A stretch of 64,000 bases of DNA, taken from positions 35,964 to 99,963 of the forward strand of contig JAXDQU010000050.1 in NCBI GenBank assembly GCA_034667685.1, given 5' to 3'. Shown one piece after another: positions 1 through 63,941 of this stretch. Origin of the DNA: Thermoplasmata archaeon. GTDB lineage: Archaea > Thermoplasmatota > SW-10-69-26 > JACQPN01 > JAJPHT01. The first letter of the stretch is position 1. Each line of letters opens with the position of its first letter. The notes under the pieces are model-generated. The model saw only the letters and a program-made list of their open reading frames with translations, did no database searches and was not told where the DNA came from. The translations under genes and the position numbers were made by a program.

Positions 1-3000
1 GCGGTGGGGCCCACCGAGGCGACGAGCGCGGGGGCGAGCCAGCGCGCGCCGGTGGAGACCTGGAACGTGACCTCGGCCTGGGCGGGCTCGCGCGTGTCGT
101 CGCCGGCGAAGCGCAGCGTGACGCCATCCTCGCCCGGCGGCGTGGAGACGGGGAGCGGGAGCGTGAGGCTGAACGCGCCGTCGGGGCCCGTCTGCGCGCG
201 CGCGTCGGCGATGCCGGCGACGTCGATCCACGCGCCGGGGATGCCCGCGCCCAGCTGGCCGCGCAGCGTGCCCTGGACCGTGAAAGAGGCGCCGGGGTTG
301 ACCGCGCCGGGCGGCCCGAAGGCCTCCAGGGTCGCGCGCTCCGTGATCGCGAGCGTGAGGTTCGCGTCCGAGGGGAGGAGGCCCGCCGCGCCGGCGAACG
401 CGAGGCTCAGGTTCGTGGCGCGCGGGTCGGCGCCCACCGCATAGGGGATCAGCGCCGAGCCGTTCGTGCCGGTCGTGTAGTTCGCGCCGTTGAACGCGAT
501 GGGCTGATGCGCGAGCGGGCGGCCCAGCGTGTCGGTGAGCGTGGCGTTGAGCGTCACGGTCGCCTGGATCAGCGCGCGCGCGGGCGCCTTCACGTGGAGC
601 GCGGTGGGGAGGACGAGCGTGGCGTTCTGCGCGTCGCTCTGGTTGCCCAGCCAGCCCACGGAGCCCGCGAGCGCGATCGCCTGGCGCGCCGGGGAGTTGG
701 AGGACGTGTTGTACGTCCACGCGAAGAGCGGCACGGGGTTCGCGGGGTCGAAGGCGCCCAGGAAGGCCGGGTCGTTGTGCGCCACGCCCGCGCCGTCGGT
801 CTGTCCGAAGACGGTCGCGCCCGCCGAGTCCGCAGGCGCGGGCACGGCGGAGGAAAGCGCGACGGGCATGCAGTAGTGGCCCGCGGCGTCCGAGAGCGCG
901 GCGCCCAGGGTGACGGCGCGGCTTCCGAGCGCGAGGAGCACGGTGGCGTTGGGCGCGGGATGGTCCGCGAGCGTGACGTTGCCGCACGCCGTGACGGAGC
1001 CGTTGAGCACGACGTTCGCCGGGAGCGGGTCGAGCGTGACGTTGGCGACGAGGCGGGCCGCGAGCGGGGCCGCCTCCGGACCGTCGTAGGCCTGCGCGGC
1101 CTCCAGGCGCGCCAGCGGCGTGAGCGTGGGGTCGCGCGGGTCGCCTTGGGGGAGCGCGTTCGCGGCGTTGGCGAAGGGGATCGGGTCCTCGCCGTTGAGG
1201 TCGTCGAGCCCGTCGTGGTCGAGGTCGCGCGTCGGGAGCTGGTTGGGCGCGAGGCCCCACTTCCAGATGCCCATCGTGGACTCGTCCCACCAGACGGGAC
1301 GGCCGTAGCTGTACTGCGGGAAGAGGCCGCTGGGCTGGCCGGGCGCGAGGTGGTGCCCCACGAGCCAGCCGTCGGGGACGCCGTCGCCGGCCGAGTCGAG
1401 CTTCGTCGCGTCCAGGCCGTAGGTGCGCTTGCCCTGGACGTCGACGACGTCGCCCGCGTCCGGGATCACGACGAGGCCGCGCTTCGCGAGGTCGTTCACG
1501 CGCGCCGCGTCGTCCGGGTTGCCCATGTGCAGCGTGTGGCCCACGACGAGGCTCAGGCGGGGGCCGTCGAGCAGCCCGCAGTGGCACGTCGAGGGGTCGA
1601 AGGGGTCGGTGGGCACGCCGTTGTTCTGCGAGCCCGACAGCTCCGTGATGTCCGGGATGATGTCGCCGTCGGAGTCCTTCGTCGGGTCGATGGCGCGCAC
1701 GTCCTGCGTCGGGTCGAGCGGGTCGAGGTGCAGGTGGACCATCGTGCCGTCGTCGACGCCGCCGAAGTCGCTGTCCTTCACGTACGGGTTCGTGCCGGCG
1801 TGGGACTCCTCCAGGTTGGTCAGGCCGTCGCCGTCGGGGTCCGCGGCGCACGAGGGGACCACGGGGCTGACGCGCTCCTGCGCGGGGCCCAGGCGCGACC
1901 AGAAGGCGGACCAGGCGTCGGAGCAGCCGTCGCCGTTCGTGTCCGTGAGGAACGGGTTGGTCTGGTTGAGCGCCGCGCTGCGCATGCCGTAGCTGACCGA
2001 GCCGCGCACGACGAGGACGTGCTTCGCCGCGCCGAACGCGTCGGTGAAGTCGAGCCCCGTGCCGCTCTCGCCGGGCAGCAGGCCCGTGGCGTCCGCAACG
2101 TAGCGCTTGTAGGAGTAGGTCTGGAGGACGACGTCGTCGTTCGCGCCGATGGAGGGCACGGTGGCCGTGGGCGGGATGGCGAACGCGCCCGGCGCGCCCG
2201 GGTAGAACGCGCCGCGCTCCTCGTCGGTCATGTTGGGGTAGACCTGGCCCCAGAAGATCTTCCACGAGTCGAGGAGGCCGTCCGGGCTCGAGGATAGCAC
2301 GTTGGCGTGCGCGTGGGCGCGGTACTTCACGAGGTTCGTCGCGACGAACGTGTGCGGCTGCGCGGCGATCTGGCCGTGGACCTGCGCGTAGCTCCACCAC
2401 GTGACCGCGTCGTCGACGAGGTCGCGGTCCGCGTCGCGCGTGTCGTCGTGGAACGAGCTCCACAGCGAGGGGTCGAGGTTCCAGCCGCCCAGCGTGTCGT
2501 TCCACGCGCCCTCCTTCACCTTCCAGCCGTCGGGGAGGCCGCTGTCGGCCGTGTCGGCGTTGGCCGGGTCGCTCGCGCTGCGCGCGTGGGCCGACGCGTA
2601 CGTCGTGTCGTTGTAGAGCGAGGGCTTGGCCTCCCAGCCGTTGAGCAGGCCGTCGCCGTCCACGTCGGGGTTGAGCATGTTGGGGCGCCCGCCCACGACG
2701 AAGCTGCCGCCCGGGCCCAGCGCCGCGCAGACGCGGTCCGCCGGCACGAGGGGCCATGCGACGCGCAGCGCCTCCGCGATCGTCTTGTGGCCGATGCCCC
2801 ACGGATAGGGCGCGTCGGCCAGGCAGTCCGCCTCGCGCTGCGCCCAGTACGCCGCCTTCTCGCCGTCCGAGAGCCCGTCGCCGCTGGTGTCGACGAGCGT
2901 CGGGTCCGTGTGCGGCAGCGTGATATCATGCCACGCGGCGGCGCCCGCCTCCTGGCCGTCGGTGAGGCCGTCGCCGTCCGTGTCGGGGTTGAGCGGATCG

Positions 3001-4316
3001 GTGAGCGGGAAGGTGAGGTTGCCCGCGCGGCCGTCGAACTCCTGCTTGTCGGTCAGGCCGTCGGCGTCGGAGTCGACCTTCGTGGGGTCCGCGAAGACCC
3101 ACTTGGGCTTGCCCGCGACCTCGATGACCCAGCCGTGGATCTTCTGGAGGTCCGTGAGGCCGGAATGCGCGGTGTCGTTCGTCGTGGGATCGGCGCCGCC
3201 CCACCAGGGGCCGTTGATCGTCTCGTTCCAGAGCGGGGGGCGGTTGACCGCGTACTTCTGGAGGACGTTGAGCGTCTCCTCCACGCGCGTGCCGTTCTCC
3301 GTCAGGTTCTCGCGCTCCACGACGCGCTGGCCCACGCGCGGGTCGCGCGGGTCGAGGCCGTACTTGGCGAGCCAGCCGTCGGGGATGCCCGAGCCGCCGG
3401 TGCTCTGCGCGCGCGGGTCGAGGCCGCCGCGGCAGGCGAGCGTGCCCGCCGGGTCGAGCCTCATCGAGGCGAGGAACTTCTCGCGCAGCGTCATGCCGCT
3501 GCGGGCCGGGTCCTGGTACGCGACGGCCGGGTCGAGCGGGTCGAACCCGTGGCACTGGAGCCAGCCGTCGGCGATGCCGCTCCCCGTCGTGGAGAAGAGG
3601 CGCGGGCTCGTGCCGACCTTCAGCTCCGTGACGTCCGCCAGGCCGTCGTGGTCCTGGTCGGGCTCCAGGGGAGAGAGGCCGCGCTGGTACGCCTCGCGCG
3701 GCGTCCACGTCACGCTCGCGCCGGCGGGCACCACGTCCAGGACGCCGGGGGCGCGCGGGTCGAGGCCGAAGTGGATGAGCCACGCGTACGGGACGCCGGT
3801 CCCGTTGAGATCTTGCCGCGTCGGGTCGAGGCTGGAGTTCCACGCGCCGTCGCGCGACTCGTTCCACGTCGCCGGGCGCCCGTAGGCGTACACCTGCGCC
3901 AGGCTCATGCGGAACTCGGCCGGAAGGCCGGCGGGGCCGTAGACGGCGGGCGAGGCCGGCGGCGTGGGATAAGGCGCGGCGCGCGACGCGAGGTCCGGGT
4001 CGCTGATATCAAGGCGCCAGGCGCGGACCCAGGCGTCGGGGAGGGCGGCCGCGGAGGCCTGGGTGGGGTCGGTGCCCAGGATCGAGTTCTCGACCGCGTC
4101 GGGCACGCCGTTGCCGTTCGCGTCCGGGAGCGCGACCAGCGCGGGGACCGTGCCGGACGAGGGGGCGCCGTGGGTGAGGCCGATCCACGCGACCGTCACG
4201 ACGCCGAGCGCAAGGAGCGCCAGCGCCAGCACCAGACCTCGACGGACCCACCGGGAGCGTCCGGCCCGGGCCTGGAGCCGCGCCAACGTCGGTGCAGCGC
4301 CTCCGAGCCAACGCAC
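1..4316 (-). CDS. Large membrane-anchored/secreted protein with thrombospondin type-3-like DxDxDG Ca-binding repeats followed by Ig-like domains; >1,438 aa, runs off the left edge
   Basis: Not in the ORF track because it has no stop inside the window. Manual translation from GTG 4316 gives MRWLGG...GLVLALALLALGVVTVAWIGL (hydrophobic N-terminus). Repeats follow, such as DANGNGVPD, DQDHDGLAD, DSDADGLTD, DTDGDGLTD, DVDGDGLLN, DTNGDGCSD, DPDGDGLTN and DLDHDGLDD, then beta-rich segments. GC3 bias is strong in this frame. Confidence 0.88.
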   Translation of the reverse strand, partial: MRWLGGAAPTLARLQARAGRSRWVRRGLVLALALLALGVVTVAWIGLTHGAPSSGTVPALVALPDANGNGVPDAVENSILGTDPTQASAAALPDAWVRAWRLDISDPDLASRAAPYPTPPASPAVYGPAGLPAEFRMSLAQVYAYGRPATWNESRDGAWNSSLDPTRQDLNGTGVPYAWLIHFGLDPRAPGVLDVVPAGASVTWTPREAYQRGLSPLEPDQDHDGLADVTELKVGTSPRLFSTTGSGIADGWLQCHGFDPLDPAVAYQDPARSGMTLREKFLASMRLDPAGTLACRGGLDPRAQSTGGSGIPDGWLAKYGLDPRDPRVGQRVVERENLTENGTRVEETLNVLQKYAVNRPPLWNETINGPWWGGADPTTNDTAHSGLTDLQKIHGWVIEVAGKPKWVFADPTKVDSDADGLTDKQEFDGRAGNLTFPLTDPLNPDTDGDGLTDGQEAGAAAWHDITLPHTDPTLVDTSGDGLSDGEKAAYWAQREADCLADAPYPWGIGHKTIAEALRVAWPLVPADRVCAALGPGGSFVVGGRPNMLNPDVDGDGLLNGWEAKPSLYNDTTYASAHARSASDPANADTADSGLPDGWKVKEGAWNDTLGGWNLDPSLWSSFHDDTRDADRDLVDDAVTWWSYAQVHGQIAAQPHTFVATNLVKYRAHAHANVLSSSPDGLLDSWKIFWGQVYPNMTDEERGAFYPGAPGAFAIPPTATVPSIGANDDVVLQTYSYKRYVADATGLLPGESGTGLDFTDAFGAAKHVLVVRGSVSYGMRSAALNQTNPFLTDTNGDGCSDAWSAFWSRLGPAQERVSPVVPSCAADPDGDGLTNLEESHAGTNPYVKDSDFGGVDDGTMVHLHLDPLDPTQDVRAIDPTKDSDGDIIPDITELSGSQNNGVPTDPFDPSTCHCGLLDGPRLSLVVGHTLHMGNPDDAARVNDLAKRGLVVIPDAGDVVDVQGKRTYGLDATKLDSAGDGVPDGWLVGHHLAPGQPSGLFPQYSYGRPVWWDESTMGIWKWGLAPNQLPTRDLDHDGLDDLNGEDPIPFANAANALPQGDPRDPTLTPLARLEAAQAYDGPEAAPLAARLVANVTLDPLPANVVLNGSVTACGNVTLADHPAPNATVLLALGSRAVTLGAALSDAAGHYCMPVALSSAVPAPADSAGATVFGQTDGAGVAHNDPAFLGAFDPANPVPLFAWTYNTSSNSPARQAIALAGSVGWLGNQSDAQNATLVLPTALHVKAPARALIQATVTLNATLTDTLGRPLAHQPIAFNGANYTTGTNGSALIPYAVGADPRATNLSLAFAGAAGLLPSDANLTLAITERATLEAFGPPGAVNPGASFTVQGTLRGQLGAGIPGAWIDVAGIADARAQTGPDGAFSLTLPLPVSTPPGEDGVTLRFAGDDTREPAQAEVTFQVSTGARWLAPALVASVGPT

Positions 4317-4382
4317 GTCCCCGACTCCACAAACGGGGTGAAGAACGTTTGGGAGCCACCAGTGCTCCTCCCGAGAAAAAAT

Positions 4383-4399
4383 TCACAGGAATCATCTAG
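4383..4399 (+). promoter_or_regulatory. 17-bp conserved motif copy (TCACAGGAATCATCTAG) in a divergent promoter region
   Basis: Matches copies at 5233, 6018, 30932, 31462, 32673 and 34272; lies in AT-rich intergenic DNA. Confidence 0.6.
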
Positions 4400-5162: not shown

Positions 5163-5172
5163 GTCGGCCCCC

Positions 5173-7916: not shown

Positions 7917-8101
7917 ACTGTATGCCTCACGTACAGCCGGCCCTCTGTGGGCCTCCGAAGCCGGCCCTGCGAGGCCATCGTGGGGGATAGGGACTTGGTT
8001 GTCACCCGGCAGAGTCACCGAGGAATCTTTTCACAAACGCCCCGCGGCGCCCCAACTCTCAAATAGGGGGTTCGAGGCCTCGCAGCCGTCCGGCTGCGGA
8101 T

Positions 8102-11100
8102 TCACCGGCGGGCGCGCCTTCCGAAGGCCAGCGCGGCGACGAGGCCGATCCCGCAGAGTGTCGCCACGGAGACATCCGGGGCGCGGTGCTCCGGTGACAC
8201 CTCGAACGCCGCGGGCTCCGCGTGGAGCGGGCCCTGCGCCTCGACCGAGACCGCGTAGCTGCCCGGCCCGGCGAGCGCGAGGACGGCGTCCGAGGCGCCC
8301 CCGGCGCGCACGCGGTGGAGCGTGGCGCGGTCGAGCACGGTCGCGTCGCGCGTGAGCACCACCTGCACCTCGTCGGCGTCCGCGTCGCCCGCGTTCGCGA
8401 CGGTGGCGCGCACGGCCCCGCCCTCCAGCCGCGTCGTGATGGAGAGCTGGACGCGCTGGACCGCGACCTGGAGCGGCGTCGCGCTGGCGAAGCGCGCGGC
8501 CGGGGCCAGGGACCAGGCGCGCAGGTCGGTCTTGGCGTCGGGCGTGACGTTGACCTTCAGGAGCGCGTGCTCGCCGGGGCCCAGCGAGGCGGGCTCGGCG
8601 CGCGCGGCGACCGTCCAGCCTTCGGGCGCGGGGATCTGGAGGGCGGAGAGGTCGAGGCGCGTGTTGCCGACGTTCTCGACGTCCACGCTCAGGAGCGAGG
8701 GGAGCCCGGCGGTCGCGCGCAGCGGCGTCAAGGCCGTCAGGTTGAGCGCGGCGCGCTCGGGCACCTCGACCGAAAGCGACCAGGGAACGGTGGCGCCGTC
8801 GTCCGACTGCACGAGGAACGTCGCGAGCGCGGGGCCCGGGGGCGCGTCGGAGGGGACCTGCAGGTCGACGCCGAGCTGCCCCTGCTGGCCCACGGGGATC
8901 GAGGCGGGCGGGCCCATGACGAGGCCGAAGCCGCGCGGGATCTGCTCGGGGACGAGCGTGACGTTCTCGACGCCATTGCCGCCGTTGAGCAGCGCGAGGC
9001 GCGCGCTGGCGACGCCGTGCCCGTTCACGCTGGCGCTCGCGCTGGGGTCCTGGAAGGCCAGGCCGTGGATCGCGCCCGCGACGGCGACGAGGTCGAGCGC
9101 GTCCGTGGCGACCGGGTCGCCGAGGAACTGCGGGATCGTCTGCACCGAGAGGCGCAGGTTGGCGCGGGCCGCGCGCGCGGCGTCCGCCGGCACGGGGATC
9201 GCGAGGTCGAGCGTGACGTCGGAGCGCGGCGGGATGCCCAGCAGCTCGGTGATGTTGTAGCCGCGCGCGCTCACGGTGGGCGCGCCCCAGCCCTCGTACG
9301 AGCCCGAGACGTTGATATCAATCCCCATGCGCGCGTCGCCGCGGTTGTGGAACGTGACGTTGAAGTGCGCGGACTCGCCCGGCTGCGCCTGGACGATGCT
9401 CGCGTTCGCGTCGAGCTCGATGTGGAGGTCGGCCAGGGCGCGCAGCGTCGCGGTGACCTGCGCGGCGGCGGATGCGTCGTGCGCCGACTCGGCCACCAGC
9501 TCCAGCTGCGTCGCGGAGCCGCCCCCGGCGGGCGCCGAGGTGAGCACGGGGAGCGTCGCGGTCTGGTCCGGGTCGAGGTGCAGCGAGGCGATGCGCGTGC
9601 CGTCGGCGAACGTCGCGCCCCACTCCGGCGAGCCCGGCAGCGCGCGCACGATGATATCATCGGGGATCGTCGCCGTGTTCTTGACGACGAGCGTGAGCGT
9701 CTTGTTCTCGCCCTTGCCGTAGGCGACGTTCTTCGCCTTGGGGCCGCCCTCGCCGTCGAACCAGGCGTCCACGGCGCGCGTCGCGCGCACGATGGTCGTC
9801 GCGCGCATGCGGTCCACCATGTCGGGGTTGCCGGCGGAGGCGGCGCTCAGCTCGACCACCGCGCGTTCCCCCTCGTGGGCGTCGGCAGGCGGCGTGACGG
9901 TGAGCGTGACGGCGCGCGAGGCGCCCCCGGCGAGGCGGACGTCGGTGTCCGAGAAGACCGCGCTCCAGCCCGCGGGGAGCGGCGTGACCGCGAGGTGGAT
10001 CGTGTCGGGCACGCCGTTGCCGCCGGAGTCCTTGGCGAGGTTCTGCACAATCAGCGGGTAGACGATGGGCGTGCCGGGGCCGGTGCTTCCCACGAGCGGC
10101 TCGGCGAGGCCGCCGCCGGGCTTGAGCGAGACGAGGTAGCCGCGGTACTGGAGCGGGCCCTGGACCCAGGGCGTGATCGAGTCGTCGAGCCCGGCGAAGA
10201 AGCCCCCGGGTAGGGAGGGGACGAGCACGACGGGCTTCGTGGCGTGGATGGTGGCGGCGCCGCTCTCGGGCCACGCCACGTTCGTCAGGTCGTTGGCGCC
10301 CAGGCTCGCGTCGGTGGCCGAGAGGCCGCCGCCCGCGACGTGGACGCGCGTCGCGTCGTAGAGCCCGACCACGGTCTGGCTCGTGAGCGTCGAGAAGGAG
10401 GTCCCGCCGACGCCGCCCACGGCCGTGATGGCCGCGCCATGCCCCGCGGAGGAGGGGATCGTCGCGGTGAAGCTCGCCAGCGTCGCGCGCTCGTCGAGCG
10501 TGCTCTCGCTGGCGCTGGGCGTGGCGTACACGACGAGGGGGCAGGGGGCGCCGTCGTCGCGGACGAGCCAGGGCGTGGTGGGCGACGCGAGGGCCGCCGA
10601 GGGGTCCACGCGGCCGGTCGCGTCGAGCGGCTGGCGCGCGTCTCCGGTGAGGGCGTCGCGCCCGCGCGCATACCCGTCGCCGCCGATCGAGAGGACGGCG
10701 CCGCGCTCGGTGACGCGGTGGATGCCGGGCTCGCAGGGAGGCTGGTTGGTGCGCGTCGCCCCGCTGTGGGCCTGCGCCTGGTAGAGCGGCCCCACGAGGC
10801 GGGGACCCACGGGCGCGCCGTCGAGCGCGGGCCACTGCGCGAACGTGCTCCACTGGGGGATCGCCAGGACGAGCACGGGCGCGTCGGAGCTGACGACGTG
10901 CTGCTGGGGTGGCGTCGTGGCGGGGATGCTGGTCAGCGGCGCGCCGGGCGTCAGCGTCGTCGTCGAGCCGTCGATGGAGAGGGTCGCGGTGCCCTGCGGC
11001 GCGTAGACCCAGAAGCCGTTGCTCTCCGCGGGCGGGAGGCGGAACTGCGTCCCCAGCGTGGACCCGTCGAGGCTGGGCACCGGGCCGGAGAGCAGGCCGT

Positions 11101-11902
11101 CCATCGCGACGGCGATGACGGGCTTGTTGGACGTGACCTCGATGAGCGCGGGGTCGCTGCTCACGTCGAGCTCGCGGAAGTCGGACGCGTTGAGCGAGAG
11201 CGGGTTGTGCACGGGGCTGTCGGGCGCCGTCTCGATGGGCGTCGGGTGGCCGAACTGGTAGGCCTGCACGAGCGCGCTGGTGCCGTCGTCGATCGCGAAG
11301 ATGCCCACCTTGCCCGCGGTGCCCACGAGGTGCGTGCCCTTGGTGATCCAGTAGGCGGCGTCGAGGGGCGCGACCTGCGCGGGCGTGTAGTCCGCCGCGG
11401 GCTTCTGGCCGTTCTGCTTCGTGTCCAGGTAGATCATGAACGCGCGCGTCTGGCCCGCCTTCGTCGCGCCCGGCATTACCCAGTCGACGTGGAACGCGGG
11501 GGTGAGCGCGCGATCATAGGGCGCGTTGCCCGCGAGCATGCCCGGGGTCGCGCGCGAGGGGACCTCGCCCACGATGAGGCCGTCGGTGGAGGCGCCGGTG
11601 CCCAGCGAGCGGTACTCGACGACGCGGACCGAGGCCTCGTCGAAGTCGAACTCGTGGAGGAGCGACGTCGCGCCCTGCGCCGAGGCGGGCCAGCCCGCGG
11701 CCCCGAGCAGCGAGCGCAGGTCGAGGTCCTCGCGGACGGCCGCGTCGTGCATCGCGACGGAGAGGTTGTTGCGGGCCAGGACGGGGATGCGCAGGTGCCA
11801 GCCCGCGTTCATGTCCCGGTCGCCCCACCACGAGGGGTAGCTCGCCTGGGCGCCGACCACCGGAGGAAGGAGGATCGCGGCGACGAGGAGGAGCGCGATC
11901 AC
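8102..11902 (-). CDS. Surface protein, ~1,266 aa: DUF2341-like N-terminus, IgGFc-binding-N-like region, NEW3/CARDB-type Ig repeats, C-terminal anchor
   Basis: GTG 11902 overlaps the upstream TGA (GTGA). Signal peptide VIALLLVAAILL; YPSWW...WHLRIPV; VTSNKPV/SSDAPV/ATKPVV repeats; many 'V.N.GN' Ig repeats; ends APDVS-hydrophobic-RRARR. Domain names come from motif recognition only. Confidence 0.85.
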   Translation of the reverse strand: MIALLLVAAILLPPVVGAQASYPSWWGDRDMNAGWHLRIPVLARNNLSVAMHDAAVREDLDLRSLLGAAGWPASAQGATSLLHEFDFDEASVRVVEYRSLGTGASTDGLIVGEVPSRATPGMLAGNAPYDRALTPAFHVDWVMPGATKAGQTRAFMIYLDTKQNGQKPAADYTPAQVAPLDAAYWITKGTHLVGTAGKVGIFAIDDGTSALVQAYQFGHPTPIETAPDSPVHNPLSLNASDFRELDVSSDPALIEVTSNKPVIAVAMDGLLSGPVPSLDGSTLGTQFRLPPAESNGFWVYAPQGTATLSIDGSTTTLTPGAPLTSIPATTPPQQHVVSSDAPVLVLAIPQWSTFAQWPALDGAPVGPRLVGPLYQAQAHSGATRTNQPPCEPGIHRVTERGAVLSIGGDGYARGRDALTGDARQPLDATGRVDPSAALASPTTPWLVRDDGAPCPLVVYATPSASESTLDERATLASFTATIPSSAGHGAAITAVGGVGGTSFSTLTSQTVVGLYDATRVHVAGGGLSATDASLGANDLTNVAWPESGAATIHATKPVVLVPSLPGGFFAGLDDSITPWVQGPLQYRGYLVSLKPGGGLAEPLVGSTGPGTPIVYPLIVQNLAKDSGGNGVPDTIHLAVTPLPAGWSAVFSDTDVRLAGGASRAVTLTVTPPADAHEGERAVVELSAASAGNPDMVDRMRATTIVRATRAVDAWFDGEGGPKAKNVAYGKGENKTLTLVVKNTATIPDDIIVRALPGSPEWGATFADGTRIASLHLDPDQTATLPVLTSAPAGGGSATQLELVAESAHDASAAAQVTATLRALADLHIELDANASIVQAQPGESAHFNVTFHNRGDARMGIDINVSGSYEGWGAPTVSARGYNITELLGIPPRSDVTLDLAIPVPADAARAARANLRLSVQTIPQFLGDPVATDALDLVAVAGAIHGLAFQDPSASASVNGHGVASARLALLNGGNGVENVTLVPEQIPRGFGLVMGPPASIPVGQQGQLGVDLQVPSDAPPGPALATFLVQSDDGATVPWSLSVEVPERAALNLTALTPLRATAGLPSLLSVDVENVGNTRLDLSALQIPAPEGWTVAARAEPASLGPGEHALLKVNVTPDAKTDLRAWSLAPAARFASATPLQVAVQRVQLSITTRLEGGAVRATVANAGDADADEVQVVLTRDATVLDRATLHRVRAGGASDAVLALAGPGSYAVSVEAQGPLHAEPAAFEVSPEHRAPDVSVATLCGIGLVAALAFGRRARR

Positions 11903-14900
11903 GCCCCGCGTCGGCGCCACCTCCAGAGGCGTCCGACGAGGGCCACCAGCGCGAGGAGCGCGAGCGGCGAGGGGCCGGGGACGTGCTTGGCCGCGGAGCC
12001 CACGGCGCCCAGCGGGCCCTGCGGGACGTGGAGCGAGTCGCCGAACGCGGCCGTGTCGCCGCCGTGCGCGCCGTGCGGGTCGACCGCGACGACGATGGCG
12101 TGCAGGCCGGGCGTCGCGTTCCACGCCAGGTGCACGAGGCCCGACTCGGCGGGCGCGAGGTCGACCTTCTGGAGCGCGACGAGCGCGCCGTCGACGTAGA
12201 GCTCGACGGGGAGCCCGCGGAGCGCGTCGTCGCCGTCGTTGCGCACCTGGACCGCGTAGTCCACGAGCCCGCCCGCGCTGGGCGTGCCGGTGGCGCGCGT
12301 GACGTTGACGAGCGTCGCCTTGCCGGCGCGCAGGTCGAGCGAGAGCGGCGTGAGGTTCGCCAGCAGGCTGCCCGCGCTGGTCGCGGCCGGGTCGATCGCG
12401 CCCACGAGGGGCTGGTACATGCCGGGCTGGAGCCCGTCGGGCAGCTCGATCGTGAGGTTGAACGCGGCGCGGTCGCCCGGCGCGAGGCGCACGTTGGGCT
12501 GGTCGAACGTGGCGCGGGCGCCCGCGGGCAGGCCGTAGGCGCGCGGCTCGCGGACGGAGTCGTGGTTGCCGCTGAACGTGACGCCCAGCGCGTAGTGGAT
12601 GGTGCGGCCCGCGGCGCTCACGCCCACGACGTCGAGGCGCGTCTCGCCCCACGGCTCCACCTGCGCGGAGACGGGCGCGTCGCCCAGCGTGGCCGCGTCC
12701 TGGCGCACCACGAGGCGCGCGTCCACGAGGCCCGGCTGCGTCGAGGCGGGAAGCTCGCCCACGATGGTGATGGGCGCCGAGTCGCCCGGCGGGACGTCGG
12801 GCGCGGCGATCTGGCCGAGCACGTGGCCGGCGGCGTCCTCGAGCAGCACGTCGCCCGAGAGCGGCGTGTTGCCGGTGTTGAGGAGCTGCGCGTCGACGCG
12901 GAGCGCCTGGGGCGGGCCCGCGGCGCGGTACACGATGGCGTCGGCGCCGGGGTGCGCGGCGACCGCGACGTCGAGCGTGCGCTGCGCGACGCGGCCCTGC
13001 GCGGTGGCTGCCAGCACGAGGCGCGCCTGGCGCGCGGGCTCGCTGGGGCCGGGCGTGATCGTCAGCGTGATCGCGCGCGACTCGCTGGGCGCCAGCGCCA
13101 CCTTCGCGAGCGAGAGCGTGGCCGCGGGCGCGTCGCCCGTCGCGGTCACCGTCAGGAGCTGCGGGTAGGGGCCGGTGTTGACGAGCTGGACGGGCACGTC
13201 GAGCGGCACGCCGGGCTGGAGCGTCAGGTTCGTCTGCGCCACCTGGAACTGGATCTCCGGCGGGAAGATCGGGAGGTCGAGGTCGCGCTCGTTGTTGCCC
13301 GTGCTCAGCTCCAGGTTGGGCGTCGTGGCCTGCACGCGGAAGCGCGTGGCGTTGTCGGGCGCGAACTCGGTCGCCGAGACGTCGACGCCCTGGCCGGGCG
13401 CCAGCGTGCCCAGCGCCTGCTCGCGCAGCACCGCGCCGCCCTCGTAGATGCGGACGACGACGTCGTGCGCGTCGGCGATGCCGAGGTTCACGATGCGCGC
13501 GCCAAGCTGGATCACCTGGCCGGGGTTCGCCTCGTGGAGGACGAGCCCGGTGGGCGTGCGCACGACGAGGCTCGCCGGGTCGATGGCGAGGTCGGGGCGG
13601 ATCAGCTGGATGACGCGGATCGGGACGGCGTAGCCGTCGTTGGCGTGGTCGTAGTCGACCTCGATGCGGTCCGGGTCCACGAGCACGTGGATGGTGTGGT
13701 TGCCGCGGTGGCCGAAGTCGGGGCGCCAGGCGTCCGCGACGACGGCGTCGACGCCCAGGGGCGCGCCGGCCTGCAGCGCGGGGATCGTCTCCTCGTGCGT
13801 CCACTCGGTGAGCCCCGTCGCGTCCTCCGTGATCCAGAGCTTGACGCGCGTGGGCGCGCTGTCGCGCGTGCCGAGGTTCGTGACGGAGACCGCGATCTGG
13901 TGGGGCACGCCTTCCTCGAGGCGGATGCCGGACGCGCCGGGCTGGCCGTCGAGGGTGAGCGAGGCCGCGAGGTCCGCGCGGGCCAGCGGCGCGAAGCGCA
14001 GCGTGAGCGGCGCCAGCACCTCGACGAAGGGCTCGTCGAGGCTCGTGGCCGCGACCTGCGGTGATAGCACGCGGGAGAAGGAGCCGCGGGCCGCGGGCGA
14101 GCTGGCGCGCAGCGTGACGCGCATCGAGGCGCCCGGCGCGATGGTCACCTGGTCGGGCACCATCTGGAGCCAGCTGCGCTCCGAGGGGTTGAGGTTCGAC
14201 GCGAGCCGGTCGAGGCTCAGCGAGACCGTCTTGGGCGCCGCGCCCGGGTTCGTCAGGAGCAGCGGGAAGTCCTTCACCGCGCTGTCGGTGAGCGGGAAGT
14301 CGAGGCCCGCGGGCGAGAGCGAGAGCTCGCCGCTGGCCAGCGTGACCGCGCCCAGGCGCCATCCGGCTCCGTCCCCGTTGCTCACGACGAATTTGATGGT
14401 GACGTTCTTGCTCTCGAAGCCGCAGCCGGTGCCCAGCGCCAGGCGCGTGAACGTCCACTGGGGCGAGGAGCCGCCGGGCGCGTAGCCGAGCACGCGCGTG
14501 CAGCCGTCGTCGGCGATCGCGAGGACCGAGACGTTGCCGTTGCCCTCGAAGCGGGGCTTCGACCAGAACTCGACGGCCGCGTCGGACGTCGCGCCGCGCA
14601 TGTCCACGAGGGGCGAGGTCAACGAGCCGTTGAACCACGAGGTGAGCTTCTTCCCCTGGCCGACCTCGGTGTCGTTGAGGCCGATGAGCATGCTGGCGTT
14701 GCCGAAGGCGTGCTCGTCGTCGGTCTTGCGCCACTGGACCTTGGAGGTCGTCTCCCCCGGGTTGGGGAGGGTCGCGGGCACCCACAGCCCCGCGTCCTCG
14801 GCGAAGTCGGTGCCGTACGCCACGTCGCCGCGGGCGACGCGCGCCTTCAGCGAGGTCGCCGCGATGCCCAGCTCGTCGGAGCGCACGGCGACCGTGTAGT

Positions 14901-17900
14901 TGCCCTCGGCGGGGAGCCGCAAGGGCGGGCCGCGCAGGAGCGTGCTGGCGCCGGGCGCGAGGTATGGGACGAGGATCGAGCCGTTCGCGATGCGCGACTT
15001 GTTGACGTTGAAGAGATCGACCGCGACGGTCCGGTTCACGATGGGCGCCGTGCCCGTGTTCACGAGCGTCGCCCGCAGCGTGACGAGCCCGGGCGCCGGG
15101 AGCCAAGGCGGAAGCAGCGTGGCGTTCTGGATCTCTGCGCTCTGGTCGTCCGCGACCTGGAGCCGCCAGGTGCGCGCGGCGCGCCCGGGGACGTCGTCGG
15201 GCGGAGGCGCGAACGCGAAGTTGCCGTCGGCGCCCAGCGTGCCCGCGATGGCCTCCAGGCGCACGGTGTGGAAGGAGACGGTCTGGTCCGGCGTCAGGCG
15301 GAGCGCGAAGGGCACGCTCGATCCGGGCTCGCCCGCGGGGGCGAGGACGGGCGCGAACGTCGCGGCCGCGTAGCGCGAGCCGGCGGGGAGCACAGCCGTG
15401 GAGCCCTCCAGCACCGAGGCCTGGAAGGGGGTCGTGTCCTGCACGAGGCCGACGCCCACGACGCGGCGCGCGTCGGGGCCGAAGTTGACGAGGGTGCCGC
15501 GGATGATCGCGGTCCCGTCCGGCGCCACGTGCAGGGGCTGCTGCGTGAGCTCGACGCCGAGGCTCGAGGCGTAGCGCGTGCCGGCGACCTCGAGCTGGTC
15601 CATGGCGAAGTTGCCCTGGAGCGTGCTGTTGTCGGTGCCCACGCGCGCGCGCAGGAGCAGGTCGGGCGACGAGAGGACGCGGCCCCGGACCTCGATCTTG
15701 GCGATCTCCCACCAGCGCGGCTGGGCGTCGACGGCGCCGCCCGACCACGCGTGGAAGCCGAGGCGGATCGTCTGGCCCGCGTACGCGGAGAGGTCGAAGC
15801 GGTCGACGGCGTAGGGGCCGCTGCCGCCGCTGGGCGAGGCGCCCGAGAAGACGTACGAGATGTTCCCCGCGCGCTGCTTGTACCAGTTGGGGCCGCTGTT
15901 GCCGCTCATGACGTGCTGGTACCACGCGCTCGGGAAGCGCTGGAACGTGTCGCCCACGTCGGGCAGCGTCGCCACGTAGGGCGCCCCGATGGGGCCGGGA
16001 AGCGTGGGGCGCGGCGCCGTCGGGCCGGGAGGCTCGGGCGCGGCGAAGACCTGCTTCCAGTCGTCCCACTGGCGCGTCGTCCGGTTGAGCGCGGACACCT
16101 CGACGACGGCGCCCTGGTAGCGCTGGTTCGTCCACGAGTCGAAGCCGACGGGGACGTTGGCCTCGTCGTCGAGGAGGTTGTAGCGGTGCGTGAGGTTGAG
16201 CGCGACGTTGCTGGAGCCGGCCTCGCCCAGGTCGATCGCGGGCGAGACGAGGCGCGTGTCGACGTGGGGCGCGACGGTCAGGTTCCAGACCGACGTGGCG
16301 AGGCCCTCGTCGTCCACCGAGGGGACGGACCTCCACGCGGCGGGCGTGGCCGGGATGCTCGCGACGGTCGAGAAGCGCTGGCTCACCCAGCCGCCCGTCG
16401 GGGCGAAGATGAGCGGGACGACCGCGCCGTCGTCGAACGTGACGGAGCGCAGGTCGACCCCCGAGAGCGCCCATCCGAGGTCGCCGTACAACGAGTCGTA
16501 GGAGTAGAACGAGAAGCGGATGCGAAGCGGGTTCGAGGCGTTCACGTTCTCGATCGTCGTCGAGAGGTGCGACCAGGGCCCGTTGCGCTCGAGGACCTGG
16601 ATCTGGGCGTCGGGGATCAGGTTCGAGGGCTGGGGGTTCGGCCAGTGGCCCGGGTGGTCGGGCTGCCAGGCGTAGATCTGATAGCGCGCGCCGGTGCCCT
16701 GCCACGAGGAGTTGAGCGTGCCGTCGCGCATGTCCCACCACGAGAGCGTGAGCTTGCCGTCGGCCTTCGAGACGTCGAACGTGCCCTGGTAGTAGGGGAT
16801 GCTGGGGTCGTTGACGTCGACCTTCGTCGTCGAGTGGGACGCGTAGCCGGACCAGACCATCGTCCCCTCGTGCGCCTGGAACACCTGCGTCTGGTTCTGG
16901 AACTCCCAGCGCCCGGTGTCGGTGGCGCCCGCGGGCACCATCCACGGCGCGTACCAGCTCATCGGCTTGGGGGGATCGGCCAGCGGGTCGGTCTGGAGCG
17001 CGTTGACCGACGTGGCCCCGGGGATCGGCACCTGGCGGAACACGACGTCCTCGGAGATGCCCGGGACGGTCGCGAGGTCGAACGAGACGGGGACCCAGCC
17101 GTCGAGGTTGACGATGCTCTCGTGCGAGTCTCCGGTGAAGGCGGTCACGGCCTCGTCGGGCGACGCGTTGATGGCGAGCGGATTGGAGCCGACGAGCGCC
17201 GGAAGCCCGCCGCCCTCGGGCGTGAGCGGGATCCACGTCGCGCCGTCGTCGGCGCTGACCTCGAAGCGCGCGCCGTCGAAGCGCGTCTCCAGGTCGTAGC
17301 GGACGAAGGCGTTGAGCACCGCCGCGCGCGCGTCGGCGATGGCGACGGTCGGGCTCATGAGCGAGCCGTCGGTGTCCGGCGGGAGCGCCCCGCTGGTGGC
17401 GTTCATCGCGGCGACGCCCTGGGGCGAGCGGAAGCCCTCGGAGGTTCCCCACACGGGCGTGCCGGTGGGCGTCCAGCCGTCGAGGCCGTCGTCGAAGCTG
17501 GCCGCGTAGAGCGCGGTGCGGGCGCTCAACGAGCCGCGGTAGAAGTTGTCCGAGGGCGTCGCGTCGGGGGTCTGGTCCGCGGCCGCGAGGACCGTGAGCG
17601 TGTAGTCGCCGGGCTGGTTGGGCACGACGAACCCGTCGTCGGACGAGTAGGGCTGGCCGTCGACGCGCGGGTCGAGGCTCTCGAAGCGCATGCCTTCCGA
17701 GGAGGGCCAGACGGTCGCGCCCAGCTCGATCGCGGTGTGGTCGACCAGCGTCGTCTTCGAGCCGGCCACGAGGGAGAGGTCGCGCGTGAGCGTCACGTGC
17801 GTGAGCGGCTCGTTGCCGTGGTTGAACACCTGGATCGAGACGTAGCGCGGGCGCCCCTCGCGGCCGATCTCCGGGCTGATCTGCGCCTGGATGGCGAGGT

Positions 17901-30881: not shown

Positions 30882-30931
30882 CAACCTCGCTCTCAAGAGG
30901 TGCGGAGTGGTTATTCTAGGCCATATGCGTA

Positions 30932-30948
30932 GTGGAGGAACCCTGTGA
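30932..30948 (-). promoter_or_regulatory. 17-bp motif copy (TCACAGGGTTCCTCCAC) upstream of the giant-gene operon
   Basis: 15/17 identical to the 31462 copy. Confidence 0.6.
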
Positions 30949-30962
30949 GGACTTTTGTCACT

Positions 30963-47200: not shown

Positions 47201-47525
47201 GTCCAACGACGCCAACGCGCCCACGCCGCTCCCCCTCCCGCAGGGCGTCTTCGAGGGGCGCTTCGAGGACAACGACCCGGCGGACGTCTACAGCGTCCAC
47301 CTCGCGGCGGGCGAGCGCGCCCTCGTGACGTTCGTGCCCTCGCCCGCGAACACGGGCCACATGCAGGTCAGCGGCGTGGGCGTCGCCATCGACCGGCAGG
47401 AGGACGTGGACGGCCGGGCCGCGTTCCAGCTGACGGCGCCGGCGGGCCAGGACGTGGACGCGGTGATCGCGCTCACGCCTGGCGTGGGTGGCGGGAACTA
47501 CGCGCTCGCCGTCGTGCACAAGTGA
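44250..47525 (+). CDS. Secreted multidomain protein, 1,091 aa: beta-propeller, two Big_7-like Ig domains, choice-of-anchor-P-like domain, PPC-like C-terminal repeats
   Basis: GTG 44250 with GGAGG SD; signal peptide; AFDG/AYD/GYD blade starts; VDGHLVGTATSAPFQIAWD; LLVNGVPV...PNTRVDLPGVGHLVLDE; QDDAGSGGDAGD and NDAMTGQDASND. Confidence 0.85.
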   Translation: MTRVRSSLAIALLLLALYAAPLLPSGRATPGDLVATATVPVPGSIGVSIAFDGHTFYYTNYQDPTLYGYTVACSGGSCATTLTLTEPIVDAGSGAHVSMGSMAYDATRHVLWAGADGSNAVYQIDPATGAATMAFTASACPMAGIVDGLGYDAINDLILYSPDTSHTVCEYTPAGSLFGTISIDSLVGFPGCYNSGVAIGGSVLYLGSDGCGQIAGYDRDSLASLGTFASPGGRDEGMTCDPVTFAPRSVIWSKDAYNNVATAFEIADGTCGVGGEPPCTPSIATTIDDPAPGFDYFAGGKVAQSPLQAFPRVNGVVTLDAHATGSAAPVRADFRVDGHLVGTATSAPFQIAWDSGSVAPGPHSLGVTITPDSGCPSTATQAFQVTCGAPILVAVSRPAAGTTYYQDIAHPGQPGPALVLGDITLAATASDPSRIGSVDWSIDGQPLATGLVGAPWSALWPASAASPGLHALTATFHETENAVCVDVATATARVSVLRQDASAQGVWIGLEQPAEPSVYTEPVPAPGSATTLDYANAAVGLEARAVVDDATTSLGAAHASSQVSDVSLLHGLVVAKLLRGEAAIALDASDLSFPADATGSHVAGLLVNGVPVTVSNPNTRVDLPGVGHLVLDERLLRDAPGHRELQVNALHLYVDHAGLRGEVVLGSAVVGLDDALGAFTGRAHESDPQDDAGSGGDAGDSRAGGLVLPVGQGGADLGSLVVGGRLGENDIADHYLVHVAQGEKIEATLKPAEAAQVGLGHVTPPPPPSLSGVNLDGSQIPAMELRLLEPSDGAVEVTSALPLSAPQRAELNVNQTGLWDLVVSGDAGNYTLSVSVVPAPLAPQAFAGAACGDANAPWLAASGVLSSMGGTDARQVWRLNASIGDDLAVELLMPDPDGQDLDLTLYDAACQVVAQSQNGKELLWPGDTPKGLSDLVAQLPVLHTQTYWVEVSRYLGAGNYLLQPQVGSAIPTAPGNDAMTGQDASNDANAPTPLPLPQGVFEGRFEDNDPADVYSVHLAAGERALVTFVPSPANTGHMQVSGVGVAIDRQEDVDGRAAFQLTAPAGQDVDAVIALTPGVGGGNYALAVVHK

Positions 47526-51861: not shown

Positions 51862-53403
51862 TTACGGCCCCGCCTCGACGTCGAACGACACACCCTGCGC
51901 CAGGGGGAGCTTCGTCGAGTAGTTGATCGTGTTCGTGCTGCGGCGCATGTACTGCTTCCAGCTGTCGGAGCCGCTCTCGCGCCCGCCGCCCGTCTCCTTC
52001 TCGCCGCCGAACGCGCCGCCGATCTCGGCGCCGCTGGTGCCGATGTTGACGTTGGCGATGCCGCAGTCCGAGCCCGCGGGCCCGAGGAACTCCTCGGCTT
52101 CGAGCAGGTCGCGCGTGAAGATGGCGCTGCTGAGGCCCTGCGGGACGTCGTTCTGGATCGCGATGGCGTTGGCGACCGGACCCGAGTAACGCATGACGTA
52201 GAGGATCGGCGCGAACGTCTCCTGCTTCACGATGTCGGTCTGCGCGGGCATGGCGACGATGGCGGGCTCGACGTAGCGCGAGCCGAGGTCGTCGCGGCGC
52301 TTGCCGCCCACGAGCACCTGGCCGCCCTGCTTCTTGGCGGCCTCCAGCGCCTCCATCATCTCGGTGACGGCGCGCTCGTTGACCAGCGGCCCCACGAGCG
52401 TCTTCTCGTCGAGCGGGTGGCCGATGCGGAGCGTCCTGTACGCGCGCACGAGCCGCTGCGTCAGCGCGTCGGCGACCTCCTCGTGGACCACGATGCGGCG
52501 CGTGCTGGTGCAGCGCTGGCCCGCGGTGCCGGCGGCGCCGAAGACGATGGCCCGGGTCGCCATGTCGAGGTCCGCGGACTTGCTGACGATGATCGCGTTG
52601 TTGCCGCCCAACTCCAGGATTGCGCGTCCGTAGCGCTGCGCCACGGTCTGGGAGAGGCGCTGGCCGATGCTGCACGAGCCCGTGAACGACACGAGCGGGA
52701 TGCGCGCGTCCTTCGCGATGCGGTCGCCCACGGTGCGCCCGGGTCCGATCACGAGCGTGCAGACGCCTTCGAAGCCGTGGCGCGCGAGCACGCGGTTGGC
52801 GATCCTGCTGACGGCGACGGCCGTGAGCGGCGTCTCGCTGCTGGGCTTCCACACCATGCTATCACCGCACACCGCGGCGATGAAGGCGTTCCACGACCAG
52901 ACTGCGACGGGGAAGTTGAACGCGCTGACGATGCCCACGACGCCCAGCGGGTGCCACTGCTCCATCATGCGGTGGCCGGGCCGCTCGCTCTGCATCGTGT
53001 TGCCGTAGAGCTGGCGCGAGAGGCCGACCGCGAAGTCCGCGACGTCGATCATCTCCTGCACCTCGCCGAGGCCCTCGGTCCTGATCTTGCCCATCTCCAG
53101 CGAGACGAGCGCGCCCAGGTCGTCCTTGTGCTTGCGCAGCTCCTCGCCCATCTCGCGCACGATCTGGCCGCGGAGGGGCGCGGGCGTGACGCGCCAGCGC
53201 AGGAACGCCTCGTGGGCCGCCTTGACGACGCGCTCGTAGTCGGCCTCGGTCGCCTGCTGCACGGTGGCGAGCACGCTGCCATCCGCGGGGCAGAGCACCT
53301 GGAGCGCCTCGCCGCCGCCGAACCACGCCTTGCCGTCGGTGGCGCCCGGGTTCGTCTCGGCGATCTCCAGGCGGCGCAGGATGCCCTTCACGTCGTGCTG
53401 CAT
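51862..53403 (-). CDS. Aldehyde dehydrogenase (ALDH7/antiquitin, piperideine-6-carboxylate dehydrogenase-like)
   Basis: EGLGEVQEMID, SAFNFPVAVW, SFTGS, LELGGNN, GQRCT, ETFAPILY, GRESGSD. Confidence 0.95.
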   Translation of the reverse strand: MQHDVKGILRRLEIAETNPGATDGKAWFGGGEALQVLCPADGSVLATVQQATEADYERVVKAAHEAFLRWRVTPAPLRGQIVREMGEELRKHKDDLGALVSLEMGKIRTEGLGEVQEMIDVADFAVGLSRQLYGNTMQSERPGHRMMEQWHPLGVVGIVSAFNFPVAVWSWNAFIAAVCGDSMVWKPSSETPLTAVAVSRIANRVLARHGFEGVCTLVIGPGRTVGDRIAKDARIPLVSFTGSCSIGQRLSQTVAQRYGRAILELGGNNAIIVSKSADLDMATRAIVFGAAGTAGQRCTSTRRIVVHEEVADALTQRLVRAYRTLRIGHPLDEKTLVGPLVNERAVTEMMEALEAAKKQGGQVLVGGKRRDDLGSRYVEPAIVAMPAQTDIVKQETFAPILYVMRYSGPVANAIAIQNDVPQGLSSAIFTRDLLEAEEFLGPAGSDCGIANVNIGTSGAEIGGAFGGEKETGGGRESGSDSWKQYMRRSTNTINYSTKLPLAQGVSFDVEAGP

Positions 53404-56061: not shown

Positions 56062-56065
56062 CGAC

Positions 56066-62679: not shown

Positions 62680-62810
62680 TCTGGGAAGACGACAAGGACG
62701 GGCGCGGGCCCACCCTTCTCCGTGCCCGCGCCCGTCCTGGTCGAGGCCCCGGCCGTTGAACGGCCTGACCGCAAACCTGAAGGCTCCCCGCGTGGGGTCG
62801 CCGCTGTCTG

Positions 62811-63941
62811 ATGCGCGGCCGCCCCCTCTCCCTCGCGCTGGCCCTGGCCTTCGTCCTCCTGGCCGCGGGGTGCACCGACAAGCTCAGCCTCAACCACGCC
62901 ACGCTGGAGAGCCCGTCCTTCTCCCTGACGCCGCAGGAGGGCGACGCGACCACGACGTTCCACGTCGACGCCGGCTCGCTCTCCAAGTACAACGTCTCGT
63001 GGGACTTCGGCGACGGCGCGCGCGCCTACGGCGGAAGCGCCGACCACAAGTACGGCTTCACCAACGGCAAGATGACCGTCACGCTCACCGTGACCGACGC
63101 CGCCGGCAAGCAGGGCTTCGCCACGCAGGTCGTCACGCTGGGCGACGGCGTCAACCGCCCGCCCACCGCTCGCCTCTCCGCCGCCCGCACGTGGGTCAAG
63201 GTCGGCGAGCCCGCCCCCTTCAGCGCCTACGGCTACGACGGCGACGGCGACCCGCTGAGCTATCAATGGAGCATCGCGAAGCCCGGCGGCGCCGAGTCGC
63301 CCGCGGGCGCCAGCTCCGACATCCGCGCGACCTTCGACGCCGTGGGCGCCTACACGCTCAAGCTCGTCGTGCGCGACCCCAAGGGCGCCAGCGCCACCGA
63401 CAGCCAGGTCGTCTGGGCCACCAAGGAGATCCCCGCGACGAGCTACGACGCGCTCTACTTCGGCAACCTCACCGTGGGCAACGGCGACGCCGGCGCCAAC
63501 GAGAAGCTCGAGCACAACCTCGGCGGCACCGCCCCCAACCAGACCGTGGACAGCGCCGTCTACCCCTTCACGCTCAGCTACCCGGGCTTCGCCCTCGTCT
63601 TCCTCACGTGGAACGACACCAGCGGCGCGGGCGCCGTCGACCTCGACCTCGAGCTGCGCTACGCCGGCAACGGCACCACCATCTGGTCGAGCGCGCACCA
63701 CACCCTCAACGCGCCCGACCCGAGCCACCCGCCCCCCGTCCCCTCCGGCCCGCCCCCGCTCCCGCCCAACCTGCCCATCCCCGCGGGCCCCTACGAATAC
63801 AACGCGAGCTACCTCCAGCCCGGCGCCTACGAAGCCGTCGTGCGCGGCTACAGCGGCGCCAACGTCGCCTACGAGACGCTCATCCACGCCAGCCTCCAGG
63901 TCAAGCCCGAGGACGTCGCCAAGGGCGAAGGCGCGCCGTAG
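62811..63941 (+). CDS. PKD-domain lipoprotein
   Basis: Lipobox LAAGC; WDFGDG and VTLTVTD; second PKD-like domain DGDGDPLSYQW. Confidence 0.9.
   Translation: MRGRPLSLALALAFVLLAAGCTDKLSLNHATLESPSFSLTPQEGDATTTFHVDAGSLSKYNVSWDFGDGARAYGGSADHKYGFTNGKMTVTLTVTDAAGKQGFATQVVTLGDGVNRPPTARLSAARTWVKVGEPAPFSAYGYDGDGDPLSYQWSIAKPGGAESPAGASSDIRATFDAVGAYTLKLVVRDPKGASATDSQVVWATKEIPATSYDALYFGNLTVGNGDAGANEKLEHNLGGTAPNQTVDSAVYPFTLSYPGFALVFLTWNDTSGAGAVDLDLELRYAGNGTTIWSSAHHTLNAPDPSHPPPVPSGPPPLPPNLPIPAGPYEYNASYLQPGAYEAVVRGYSGANVAYETLIHASLQVKPEDVAKGEGAP

Follow-up and report, generated by a model that had tools for sequence, protein, structure and literature searches.

A TGATAKCA octamer enriched against codon bias in one genus of archaea, with features of a highly iterated palindrome

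A 64,000-nucleotide stretch of contig JAXDQU010000050.1 from a Thermoplasmata archaeon (the window below; site coordinates are counted from its first letter) raises the question of why one AT-rich octamer, TGATAKCA, recurs inside the genes of a DNA whose GC content is 0.68-0.75 in 4-kb steps. The octamer has two forms, the perfect palindrome TGATATCA and the duplex that reads TGATAGCA on one strand and TGCTATCA on the other. A first-pass annotation, made by a model from the letters of the window, had counted nine copies of the palindrome and five of the second form, and proposed a genome-wide signal or, alternatively, a mutation hotspot. All fourteen sites are where it placed them; dinucleotide-preserving shuffles of the window (n=100 for TGATATCA) give 0.02 expected copies of the palindrome and 0.26 of the second form, the largest shuffles containing 1 and 2, respectively. 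All 14 octamers lie within called genes. About 19 additional sites with the GATAKC core had also been reported, and this claim holds in part. The count is right: the core gives 46 matches in the window (the palindrome being counted on both strands) against 16.0±4.8 expected, and these are 33 distinct sites, 19 of them beyond the 14 octamers. As a class, the additional sites are mostly near chance: 23 matches remain after removal of the octamers, again against 16.0±4.8, and within the window this is no clear excess. What stands is that some seven-of-eight forms are truly enriched where the protein fixes the eighth base, the forced forms TGATATCB being 18-41-fold over-represented.

The window's own genome (G000) is a 3.48 Mb assembly of 124 contigs with 71.1% GC (0.711). 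It contains 378 sites of TGATATCA where about 4 are expected at zero order, and the palindrome is the most enriched 8-mer among those seen at least 50 times; the form TGATAGCA/TGCTATCA has 329 sites against 19.7 expected. The proposal of a genome-wide signal is thus borne out, and its kind, as argued below, is that of the highly iterated palindrome HIP1. Together the two forms make 707 sites, about one per 4.9 kb. Genes were called with our own simple codon-statistics caller rather than a standard tool (3552 genes, 87.5% of G000 coding); 305 copies of TGATATCA fall in genes, 43 at gene edges and 30 between genes. The octamer uses codons that are rare here, as the first-pass annotation had noted: GAT is 8.5% of Asp, CTA 0.6% of Leu and TCA 1.3% of Ser codons. 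The codon-aware null proposed there was realised by shuffling synonymous codons within each gene of G000 (30 shuffles), and the enrichment survives it: in-gene TGATATCA on the sense strand occurs 305 times against 5.8±1.6 (largest shuffle 10), sense TGCTATCA 236 times against 7.6, and sense TGATAGCA 68 times against 0.97.

The specificity is narrow. Among the 12 one-mismatch classes, only TGMTATCA/TGATAKCA, that is, A/C at position 3 (T/G at position 6), is strongly enriched (304 vs 9.4); AGATATCA/TGATATCT reaches 10.7x on 22 sites, and the ten remaining classes 0-3.6x. The double variant TGCTAGCA, which contains CTAG, shows no enrichment (1 vs 0.35). A maximal-order Markov null was also tried; it expects 672.5 occurrences against 756 observed on both strands and is uninformative because the 7-mers are found almost only within the octamer. 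The reversed word ACTATAGT, used as a control in the genome search, proved a poor one, as it contains the under-represented CTAG. The tetranucleotide CTAG is itself avoided in G000 (1536 occurrences vs 37474 for GATC, which has the same composition, both strands), being about 12-fold under-represented. CTAG-directed systems are known in some other archaea, and the avoidance hints at such a system in this genome.

The signal acts at the level of DNA, by silent changes rather than by reshaping of proteins. The first-pass annotation described the sites as lying in different reading frames, which overstates the case: 11 of the 14 window octamers read nnT-GAT-A(T/G)C-Ann and 3 of the 14 read nTG-CTA-TCA, and genome-wide the in-gene TGATATCA copies are in the Asp-Ile frame in 295/305. 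Selection on a peptide, a codon pair or the mRNA, or else a set of transcription-factor or promoter sites, could be read from these 295 copies that encode Asp-Ile, and also from the finding that no other 8-mer ends as often as TGATATCA on the first base of a start codon (26/3521); the motif also resembles an extended -10 element. We nevertheless consider explanations of this type very improbable. The Asp-Ile dipeptide occurs at 0.90 of expectation and thus shows no enrichment; that of the word extends over three frames, both strands and non-coding junctions; 305 of the 378 copies are in genes and are spread evenly; and the host is an archaeon, with two TATA-binding proteins encoded in G000 and without sigma-70 promoters. 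The two TATA-binding-protein genes stand in tandem (contig C8, 82749-83822), as four TBP repeats in a row.

How far the octamer has been installed can be seen in permissive contexts, that is, places where the protein sequence allows it by synonymous choice. Of the x-Asp-Ile-x places (TGATATCA), 295 of 654 are occupied (45%); for Cys-Tyr-His/Gln (TGC TAT CAn) the figure is 31 of 33, for xTG-Leu-Ser (CTA TCA, both codons being among the rarest) 201 of 1125, for x-Asp-Ser-x (TGATAGCA) 66 of 512, and for Arg-Tyr-His/Gln (CGA TAT CAn), where T1 would create a stop codon, 47 of 168. These five context classes are enriched from 12-fold to more than 4000-fold over context-specific codon usage, the lowest value belonging to the saturated Cys-Tyr class. 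Outside genes, TGA-NNNN-ATG decamers (n=360) have TATC as the filler in 69 cases and TAGC in 20, with 9 for the next filler; the four-base junctions of co-directional genes carry TGATATCATG in 14 of 53. Amino-acid differences are 20:36 at motif sites against 25:35 in unoccupied contexts (p=0.57). As the dipeptide is not enriched and amino-acid changes are not in excess, the octamer has been installed silently, with the proteins not reshaped. A Val/Leu-to-Ile change driven by the motif was considered and is ruled out by the same control (p=0.57) and the unenriched dipeptide.

Two side observations on codon choice may be recorded here. In the xTG-Leu-Ser contexts of G000, leucine after the codon ending in TG is written CTC about 340 times and CTG about 65 times, though CTG is 34% of Leu codons overall. 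Among the Asp codons of G000, GAT in place of GAC is unusually frequent before a codon starting with C: 92 of 390 before CCC-A, 64 of 203 before CCG-T and 31 of 75 before CCC-C, compared with about 7% overall; GATC may be a second favoured word.

No consensus is found beyond the 8 bp, and the flanks carry codon periodicity only. Remnants or ends of a small mobile repeat of the MITE or REP kind would be a conceivable source of a dispersed word, yet they would be expected to leave longer traces; sequence conserved past 8 bp is absent, most sites align in frame and without gaps to the genes of a sister species (G003), and the spread is Poisson-like, without clusters. We give this explanation practically no credence.

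Occupancy by the word follows a graded, cooperative grammar of the sort that is typical when proteins recognise DNA. With the left half fixed as TGAT, occupancy depends on the partner half: 51% for ATCA, 31% for AGCA, 4.5-11% for ATCB, then 2.5% for GTCA, 1.8% for CTCA and 0.9% for GGCA, over a background of 0.25%. The rare wobble T's in Asp-Ile-A contexts are coupled, with counts of 295 (T..T), 51, 35 and 194 and an odds ratio of about 32. When CA follows, TAT is used instead of TAC in 97% of cases after TGC, 77% after CGC and 49% after GGC; position 1 is accordingly the least critical.

This grammar also bears on the alternative offered by the first-pass annotation, namely a context-specific C-to-T (deamination-type) hotspot that turns CGACRTCG-like sequence into TGATATCA. 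Most of the synonymous changes needed are indeed C-to-T or G-to-A at wobble positions, and many sites differ from the sister species as CGACATCA, CGACGTCA or GGACGTCA. Such a hotspot would, however, act by independent changes, while T1 and T4 are coupled (the odds ratio above), and occupancy depends on the full 8-bp partner context. Its precursors are undepleted (TGACATCA 35 vs 30.8, TGACGTCA 14 vs 16.0). CTA-TCA requires C-to-A (CTC to CTA, seen in comparison with the sister species), and this class, together with the TGA-TATC-ATG junctions, requires transversions and up to four specific bases. Finally, GC3 is about 94-97%, so that wobble T's would revert. We see little chance that the hotspot is the explanation.

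The next question is how far the signal extends. Five species of the genus contain 378, 210, 141, 111 and 53 copies of TGATATCA; four other genera of the family have 2-5 copies, and 0-9 copies are found in 12 more genomes from its order and class. The variant TGATAGCA/TGCTATCA occurs 329, 151, 229, 72 and 63 times in the five species and 5 times in an outgroup. Across 401 sampled genomes of the phylum, dozens to hundreds of copies are found in many that are low in GC (one family 138-430). The apparent excess in other Thermoplasmatota families was rejected as a second instance: in the two genomes sampled it follows from low GC and ordinary composition, with 14 copies against a Markov expectation of 22.7 in G073 (110 kb, GC 0.47) and 46 against 52.2 in G246 (200 kb, GC 0.39). 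In the genomes searched, hyper-enrichment is confined to one genus. As to habitat, near-identical DNA to positions 21001-31000 of the window is present in soil metagenome contigs of at least two other studies (word shares 0.96 and 0.51), so the organism recurs in soils. Positions 8001-28000 were compared with contigs of four soil metagenome runs: one run matched identically, and the rest gave fragments. The differences listed, 40 with a further 315 unlisted, all fall outside the motif, and we draw no conclusion from this.

Retention was studied with G003 as the one sister species, in a sample of 746 kb. The window and this species are only 63-75% identical at the DNA level, and orthology was therefore established at the protein level (563 reciprocal-best pairs with G000, median identity 76%). 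Aligned genes contain 119 sites of G000, of which 21 recur in G003 as the identical word at the corresponding position; 50 sites of G003 include the same 21, and its site set is largely a subset of that of G000. There are 174 contexts that permit the word in either species: both carry it in 21 of them, G000 alone in 27, G003 alone in 5 and neither in 121; the odds ratio for co-occupancy is 18.8 (p=9e-10), and the 21 contexts compare with 7.2 expected, about a threefold excess. The conservation of sites at synonymous positions, which the first-pass annotation wished to see checked, is thereby found. Rare GAT outside the motifs is kept at 8.1% against a baseline of 3.0%, so synonymous sites are near-randomised between the two species. 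Synonymous identity beside the shared sites is 0.73-0.76 and the background is 0.747; recent transfer is therefore not the explanation for the shared sites. The sites are long-lived and, once made, are kept above background.

Along the genome, the number of sites in 10-kb intervals has a Poisson-like distribution (mean 2.06, variance 2.02), and density rises with GC (r=0.36). Two lower-GC contigs of G000 are depleted, with 3 sites against 12.7 expected and 7 against 16.5; these are C42 (62.6 kb, GC 0.66) and C118 (81.5 kb, GC 0.67), which are probably recently acquired foreign DNA. An open frame of about 1090 residues in C118 has a weak Dam-family match and occurs in G000 only. The minimum spacing among the 707 sites is 57 bp, while 6 pairs closer than 50 bp are expected; permissive contexts less than 50 bp from a site are occupied in 0 of 23 cases, and beyond 50 bp the occupied share is 27-31%, with no trend out to several kb. 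With such small numbers, the exclusion below 57 bp is a lead. Strand polarity of the Chi or KOPS type was not found: the palindrome has no polarity, and the asymmetric variant is enriched in both orientations.

These data allow a strict DNA-uptake or exchange signal to be weighed, in which motif-bearing fragments would be preferentially imported and recombined, as with the DNA uptake sequences (DUS) and uptake signal sequences (USS) of bacteria. The size of the enrichment is comparable, the word is lineage-specific, it uses the cheapest frames and it is depleted in likely foreign DNA. Against this, sites do not interfere with each other at the kb scale, and synonymous divergence beside shared sites is not reduced (0.73-0.76 vs 0.747), so there is no sign of recent exchange. 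ComEC and secretin gave no match in the 9 genomes of the family, which is expected for an archaeon and says little, and an archaeal uptake signal was not found in the literature searched. HIP1 is now proposed to be a signal of this kind, according to the available part of a recent paper (PMC13756078). On the whole we regard a strict uptake signal as quite unlikely here.

We believe that the octamer is somewhat better explained than not as a highly iterated palindrome of the HIP type, namely the site recognised by a DNA-binding or DNA-modifying protein particular to this lineage, serving as a self-DNA tag kept by weak selection or bias. The enrichment, its DNA-level nature, the grammar, the confinement to one genus and the above-background retention are shown by the data; the protein, the benefit and the role we infer along the following lines. 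A reader protein would have arisen, or changed specificity, in the ancestor of the genus. It would read two TGAT half-sites on the duplex, with G2, A3 and T4 essential and T1 preferred, and would tolerate A3 to C in one half only. Each copy would confer a small, local and roughly additive advantage, or be the product of a motif-directed bias. Point substitutions would then slowly install the motif where amino acids are unaffected: by exchange of synonymous codons within x-Asp-Ile-x, x-Asp-Ser-x, xTG-Leu-Ser and Cys/Arg-Tyr-His/Gln, and in the four unconstrained bases that separate a TGA stop from the next ATG. By analogy with HIP1, the word may mark own DNA for a machine of DNA transactions (exchange or recombination, repair, chromosome organisation); we presume that it is not a signal of transcription or translation.

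Several findings weigh against this explanation. The proteins show no visible reshaping, and amino-acid differences are no commoner at motif sites (p=0.57). How often the duplex TGATAGCA/TGCTATCA occurs depends on which half has to supply the rare wobble bases. If it is the perfect TGAT half, the duplex is common (Asp-Ser 66/215; likewise the 201 sites of xTG-CTA-TCA); if it is the imperfect one, the same duplex is almost never seen (Ala-Ile 4/656, where codon costs predict about 60). The G003 sample has the same grammar, with Ala-Ile at 0/210. If the final duplex were all that counted, such half-site asymmetry would not be expected; it requires either slow, path-limited accumulation, in which Ala-Ile intermediates, with two mismatches in a single half, bring no gain, or a process working on the half-sites one by one, and either fits.

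A further point against it comes from the search for the reader protein. No DNA methyltransferase restricted to the genus was found, and PF02086 (Dam/EcoRV-type) has no genus-wide member. The PF01555 enzyme on contig C106 and the C5 enzyme on C63 are also conserved in motif-free genera, at 58-75% and 58-91% identity, respectively; a second PF01555-like gene occurs in G000 only; matches to PF02384 are weak, and one of them is tRNA-methylase-like by eye. The search with PF05063 (MT-A70) was silent in G000 and in its own controls, and therefore shows nothing. The two conserved enzymes, an N4/N6 methyltransferase of 332 residues (C106, 108965-109963) and a C5 DNA methyltransferase of 314 residues (C63, 5378-6322), have native codon usage, are conserved in most family genomes and look like orphan enzymes; a change of specificity in a conserved enzyme may be the source of the reader. 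An autoregulated DNA-binding gene was also sought behind the intergenic copies: among 44 site-gene pairs viewed by eye several are housekeeping-like, and there was no convincing candidate.

The half-site asymmetry is accommodated by a different mechanism, a motif-directed repair or methylation-linked "ratchet" of the type proposed by Elhai for HIP1, in which mismatch correction, biased towards the motif by a sequence-specific enzyme, accumulates lasting copies without serving the cell. A process that works on one half at a time and needs the cognate half would give the contrast of 66/215 with 4/656. The flat occupancy from 50 bp to several kb, without a diminishing return at the kb scale, and the unreshaped proteins are also as the ratchet would have them, and the model is in print for HIP1 (available parts of PMC4390886 and PMC5861425). 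On the other side, Vsr has no match in G000, which is 99% complete and richest in copies, and is found in G002 and G003; the search for a methyltransferase specific to the genus was negative; and the exclusion below 57 bp (0/23 contexts) is not predicted by a simple repair bias. The conservation of HIP1 sites, moreover, is read by Xu, Lawrence and Durand as selection rather than replenishment in the accessible text of PMC5861425, and the same conservation is observed here. We consider the ratchet possible, though on balance unlikely.

A more specific form of the preferred HIP-type explanation is that the octamer is the first archaeal "self-DNA tag". A genus-restricted enzyme would bind the whole TGATAKCA and act per TGAT half, perhaps through a modification of the GAT adenine, and would mark own or kin DNA for exchange, recombination or repair. 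This proposal is tentative, and we hold it to be improbable as it stands. If it were true, the series from 53 to 378 copies in five species, with none to speak of in the sister genera, would be young enough for the origin of a HIP-type word to be caught.

Hyper-abundant palindromes such as HIP1 have been documented in cyanobacteria and have gone three decades without an accepted function. The present case belongs to another domain of life, and its motif runs counter to base composition, so that the force can be measured against codon bias: the occupancy is 45% to 94% of the free places. The graded series of species beside motif-free sister genera makes the responsible gene findable by phylogenetic profiling and the mechanism testable. 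Words of this type also distort codon-usage and k-mer statistics and can affect binning and the detection of horizontal transfer in soil archaea.

It remains to describe the window sites one by one. The copies of TGATATCA at 2921-2928 and 4004-4011 are both in one giant gene on the minus strand, with the sense codons CAT GAT ATC ACG (H-D-I-T) and CTT GAT ATC AGC (L-D-I-S). Those at 9313-9320 and 9652-9659 are in the minus-strand gene 8102-11920, as ATT GAT ATC AAC (I-D-I-N) and GAT GAT ATC ATC (D-D-I-I). The giant gene 11899-21432 (minus) has TGATAGCA on the plus strand at 14062-14069, the sense reading being GTG CTA TCA CCG (V-L-S-P). Four sites are in the giant gene 21429-30884: TGATAGCA at 21962-21969 on the minus strand, which is the sense strand, as GAT GAT AGC ATC (D-D-S-I), and TGATATCA at 22469-22476 as ATT GAT ATC ACG (I-D-I-T), at 27515-27522 as CTT GAT ATC AAC (L-D-I-N) and, 135 bp from the latter, at 27650-27657 as GTT GAT ATC AAC (V-D-I-N). 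Near the start of gene 36554-37675 (plus), TGATATCA at 36565-36572 reads GTT GAT ATC ACG (V-D-I-T). The gene 41609-43912, which is PEP-synthase-like according to a protein-atlas look-up of its family, carries TGCTATCA twice on the plus, sense strand, at 42438-42445 as GTG CTA TCA GAT (V-L-S-D) and at 42630-42637 as TTG CTA TCA GGG (L-L-S-G). The last two are TGATATCA at 45512-45519 in gene 44250-47525 (plus), as GGT GAT ATC ACG (G-D-I-T), and TGATAGCA at 52857-52864 on the minus, sense strand of gene 51862-53403, as GGT GAT AGC ATG (G-D-S-M).

Three known systems invite comparison. Very-short-patch repair by Vsr and Dcm in E. coli is a sequence-specific bias that shifts word frequencies genome-wide, and a repair bias of this nature could explain the half-site-autonomous behaviour described above. 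The present case is unlike it in that G000 lacks Vsr, the direction is towards A:T pairs, and the effect is hundreds-fold instead of few-fold. DUS of Neisseriaceae and USS of Pasteurellaceae are oriented, non-palindromic words, often in inverted pairs at terminators. With these TGATAKCA shares the nature of a short, hyper-abundant, lineage-specific word that is placed in the least costly frames and is rarer in foreign DNA. It differs in being of palindromic type, with single copies never closer than 57 bp and no spacing effect at the kb scale, and in its host, an archaeon in which neither ComEC nor secretin was found.

The closest likeness is to HIP1 (GCGATCGC), which the available portions of two papers (PMC5861425, PMC4390886) describe as an 8-bp palindrome of cyanobacteria with enriched variants and an unexplained function. 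It has been proposed to serve chromosome structure, to result from a methylation-linked repair ratchet or, in a recent proposal, to be a DNA-uptake signal (PMC5861425, PMC4390886, PMC13756078, each in its accessible part). The literature on highly iterated palindromes that we searched concerns cyanobacteria, judged by titles and abstracts; no such archaeal motif was found in it, the available text of Elhai (PMC4390886) makes no mention of archaea, and among the papers found to contain the octamer, those listed do not appear from title or abstract to deal with a genomic motif. Compared with HIP1, the present host is an archaeon and not a cyanobacterium; the motif, AT-rich where the genome has 71% GC, goes against codon bias; it is limited to one genus, with a 7-fold range among species, and is rarer, at about one per 5 kb for both forms; and no matching methyltransferase was found. 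The common features are nonetheless many. Like HIP1 and the alternate HIPs (as far as the accessible parts of PMC4390886 and PMC5861425 describe them), it is an 8-bp perfect palindrome, over-represented tens- to hundreds-fold and dispersed in genes and spacers; like HIP1, it is a bare word with enriched one-mismatch relatives, is lineage-specific, and has orthologous sites kept above background. HIP1 is given as 15- to 300-fold over-represented and conserved between genomes in the available part of PMC5861425. The HIP class begins at an over-representation of at least about 15-fold, and the archaeal octamer occurs 378 times where about 4 copies are expected, and 305 times within genes where the synonymous shuffle gives 5.8.

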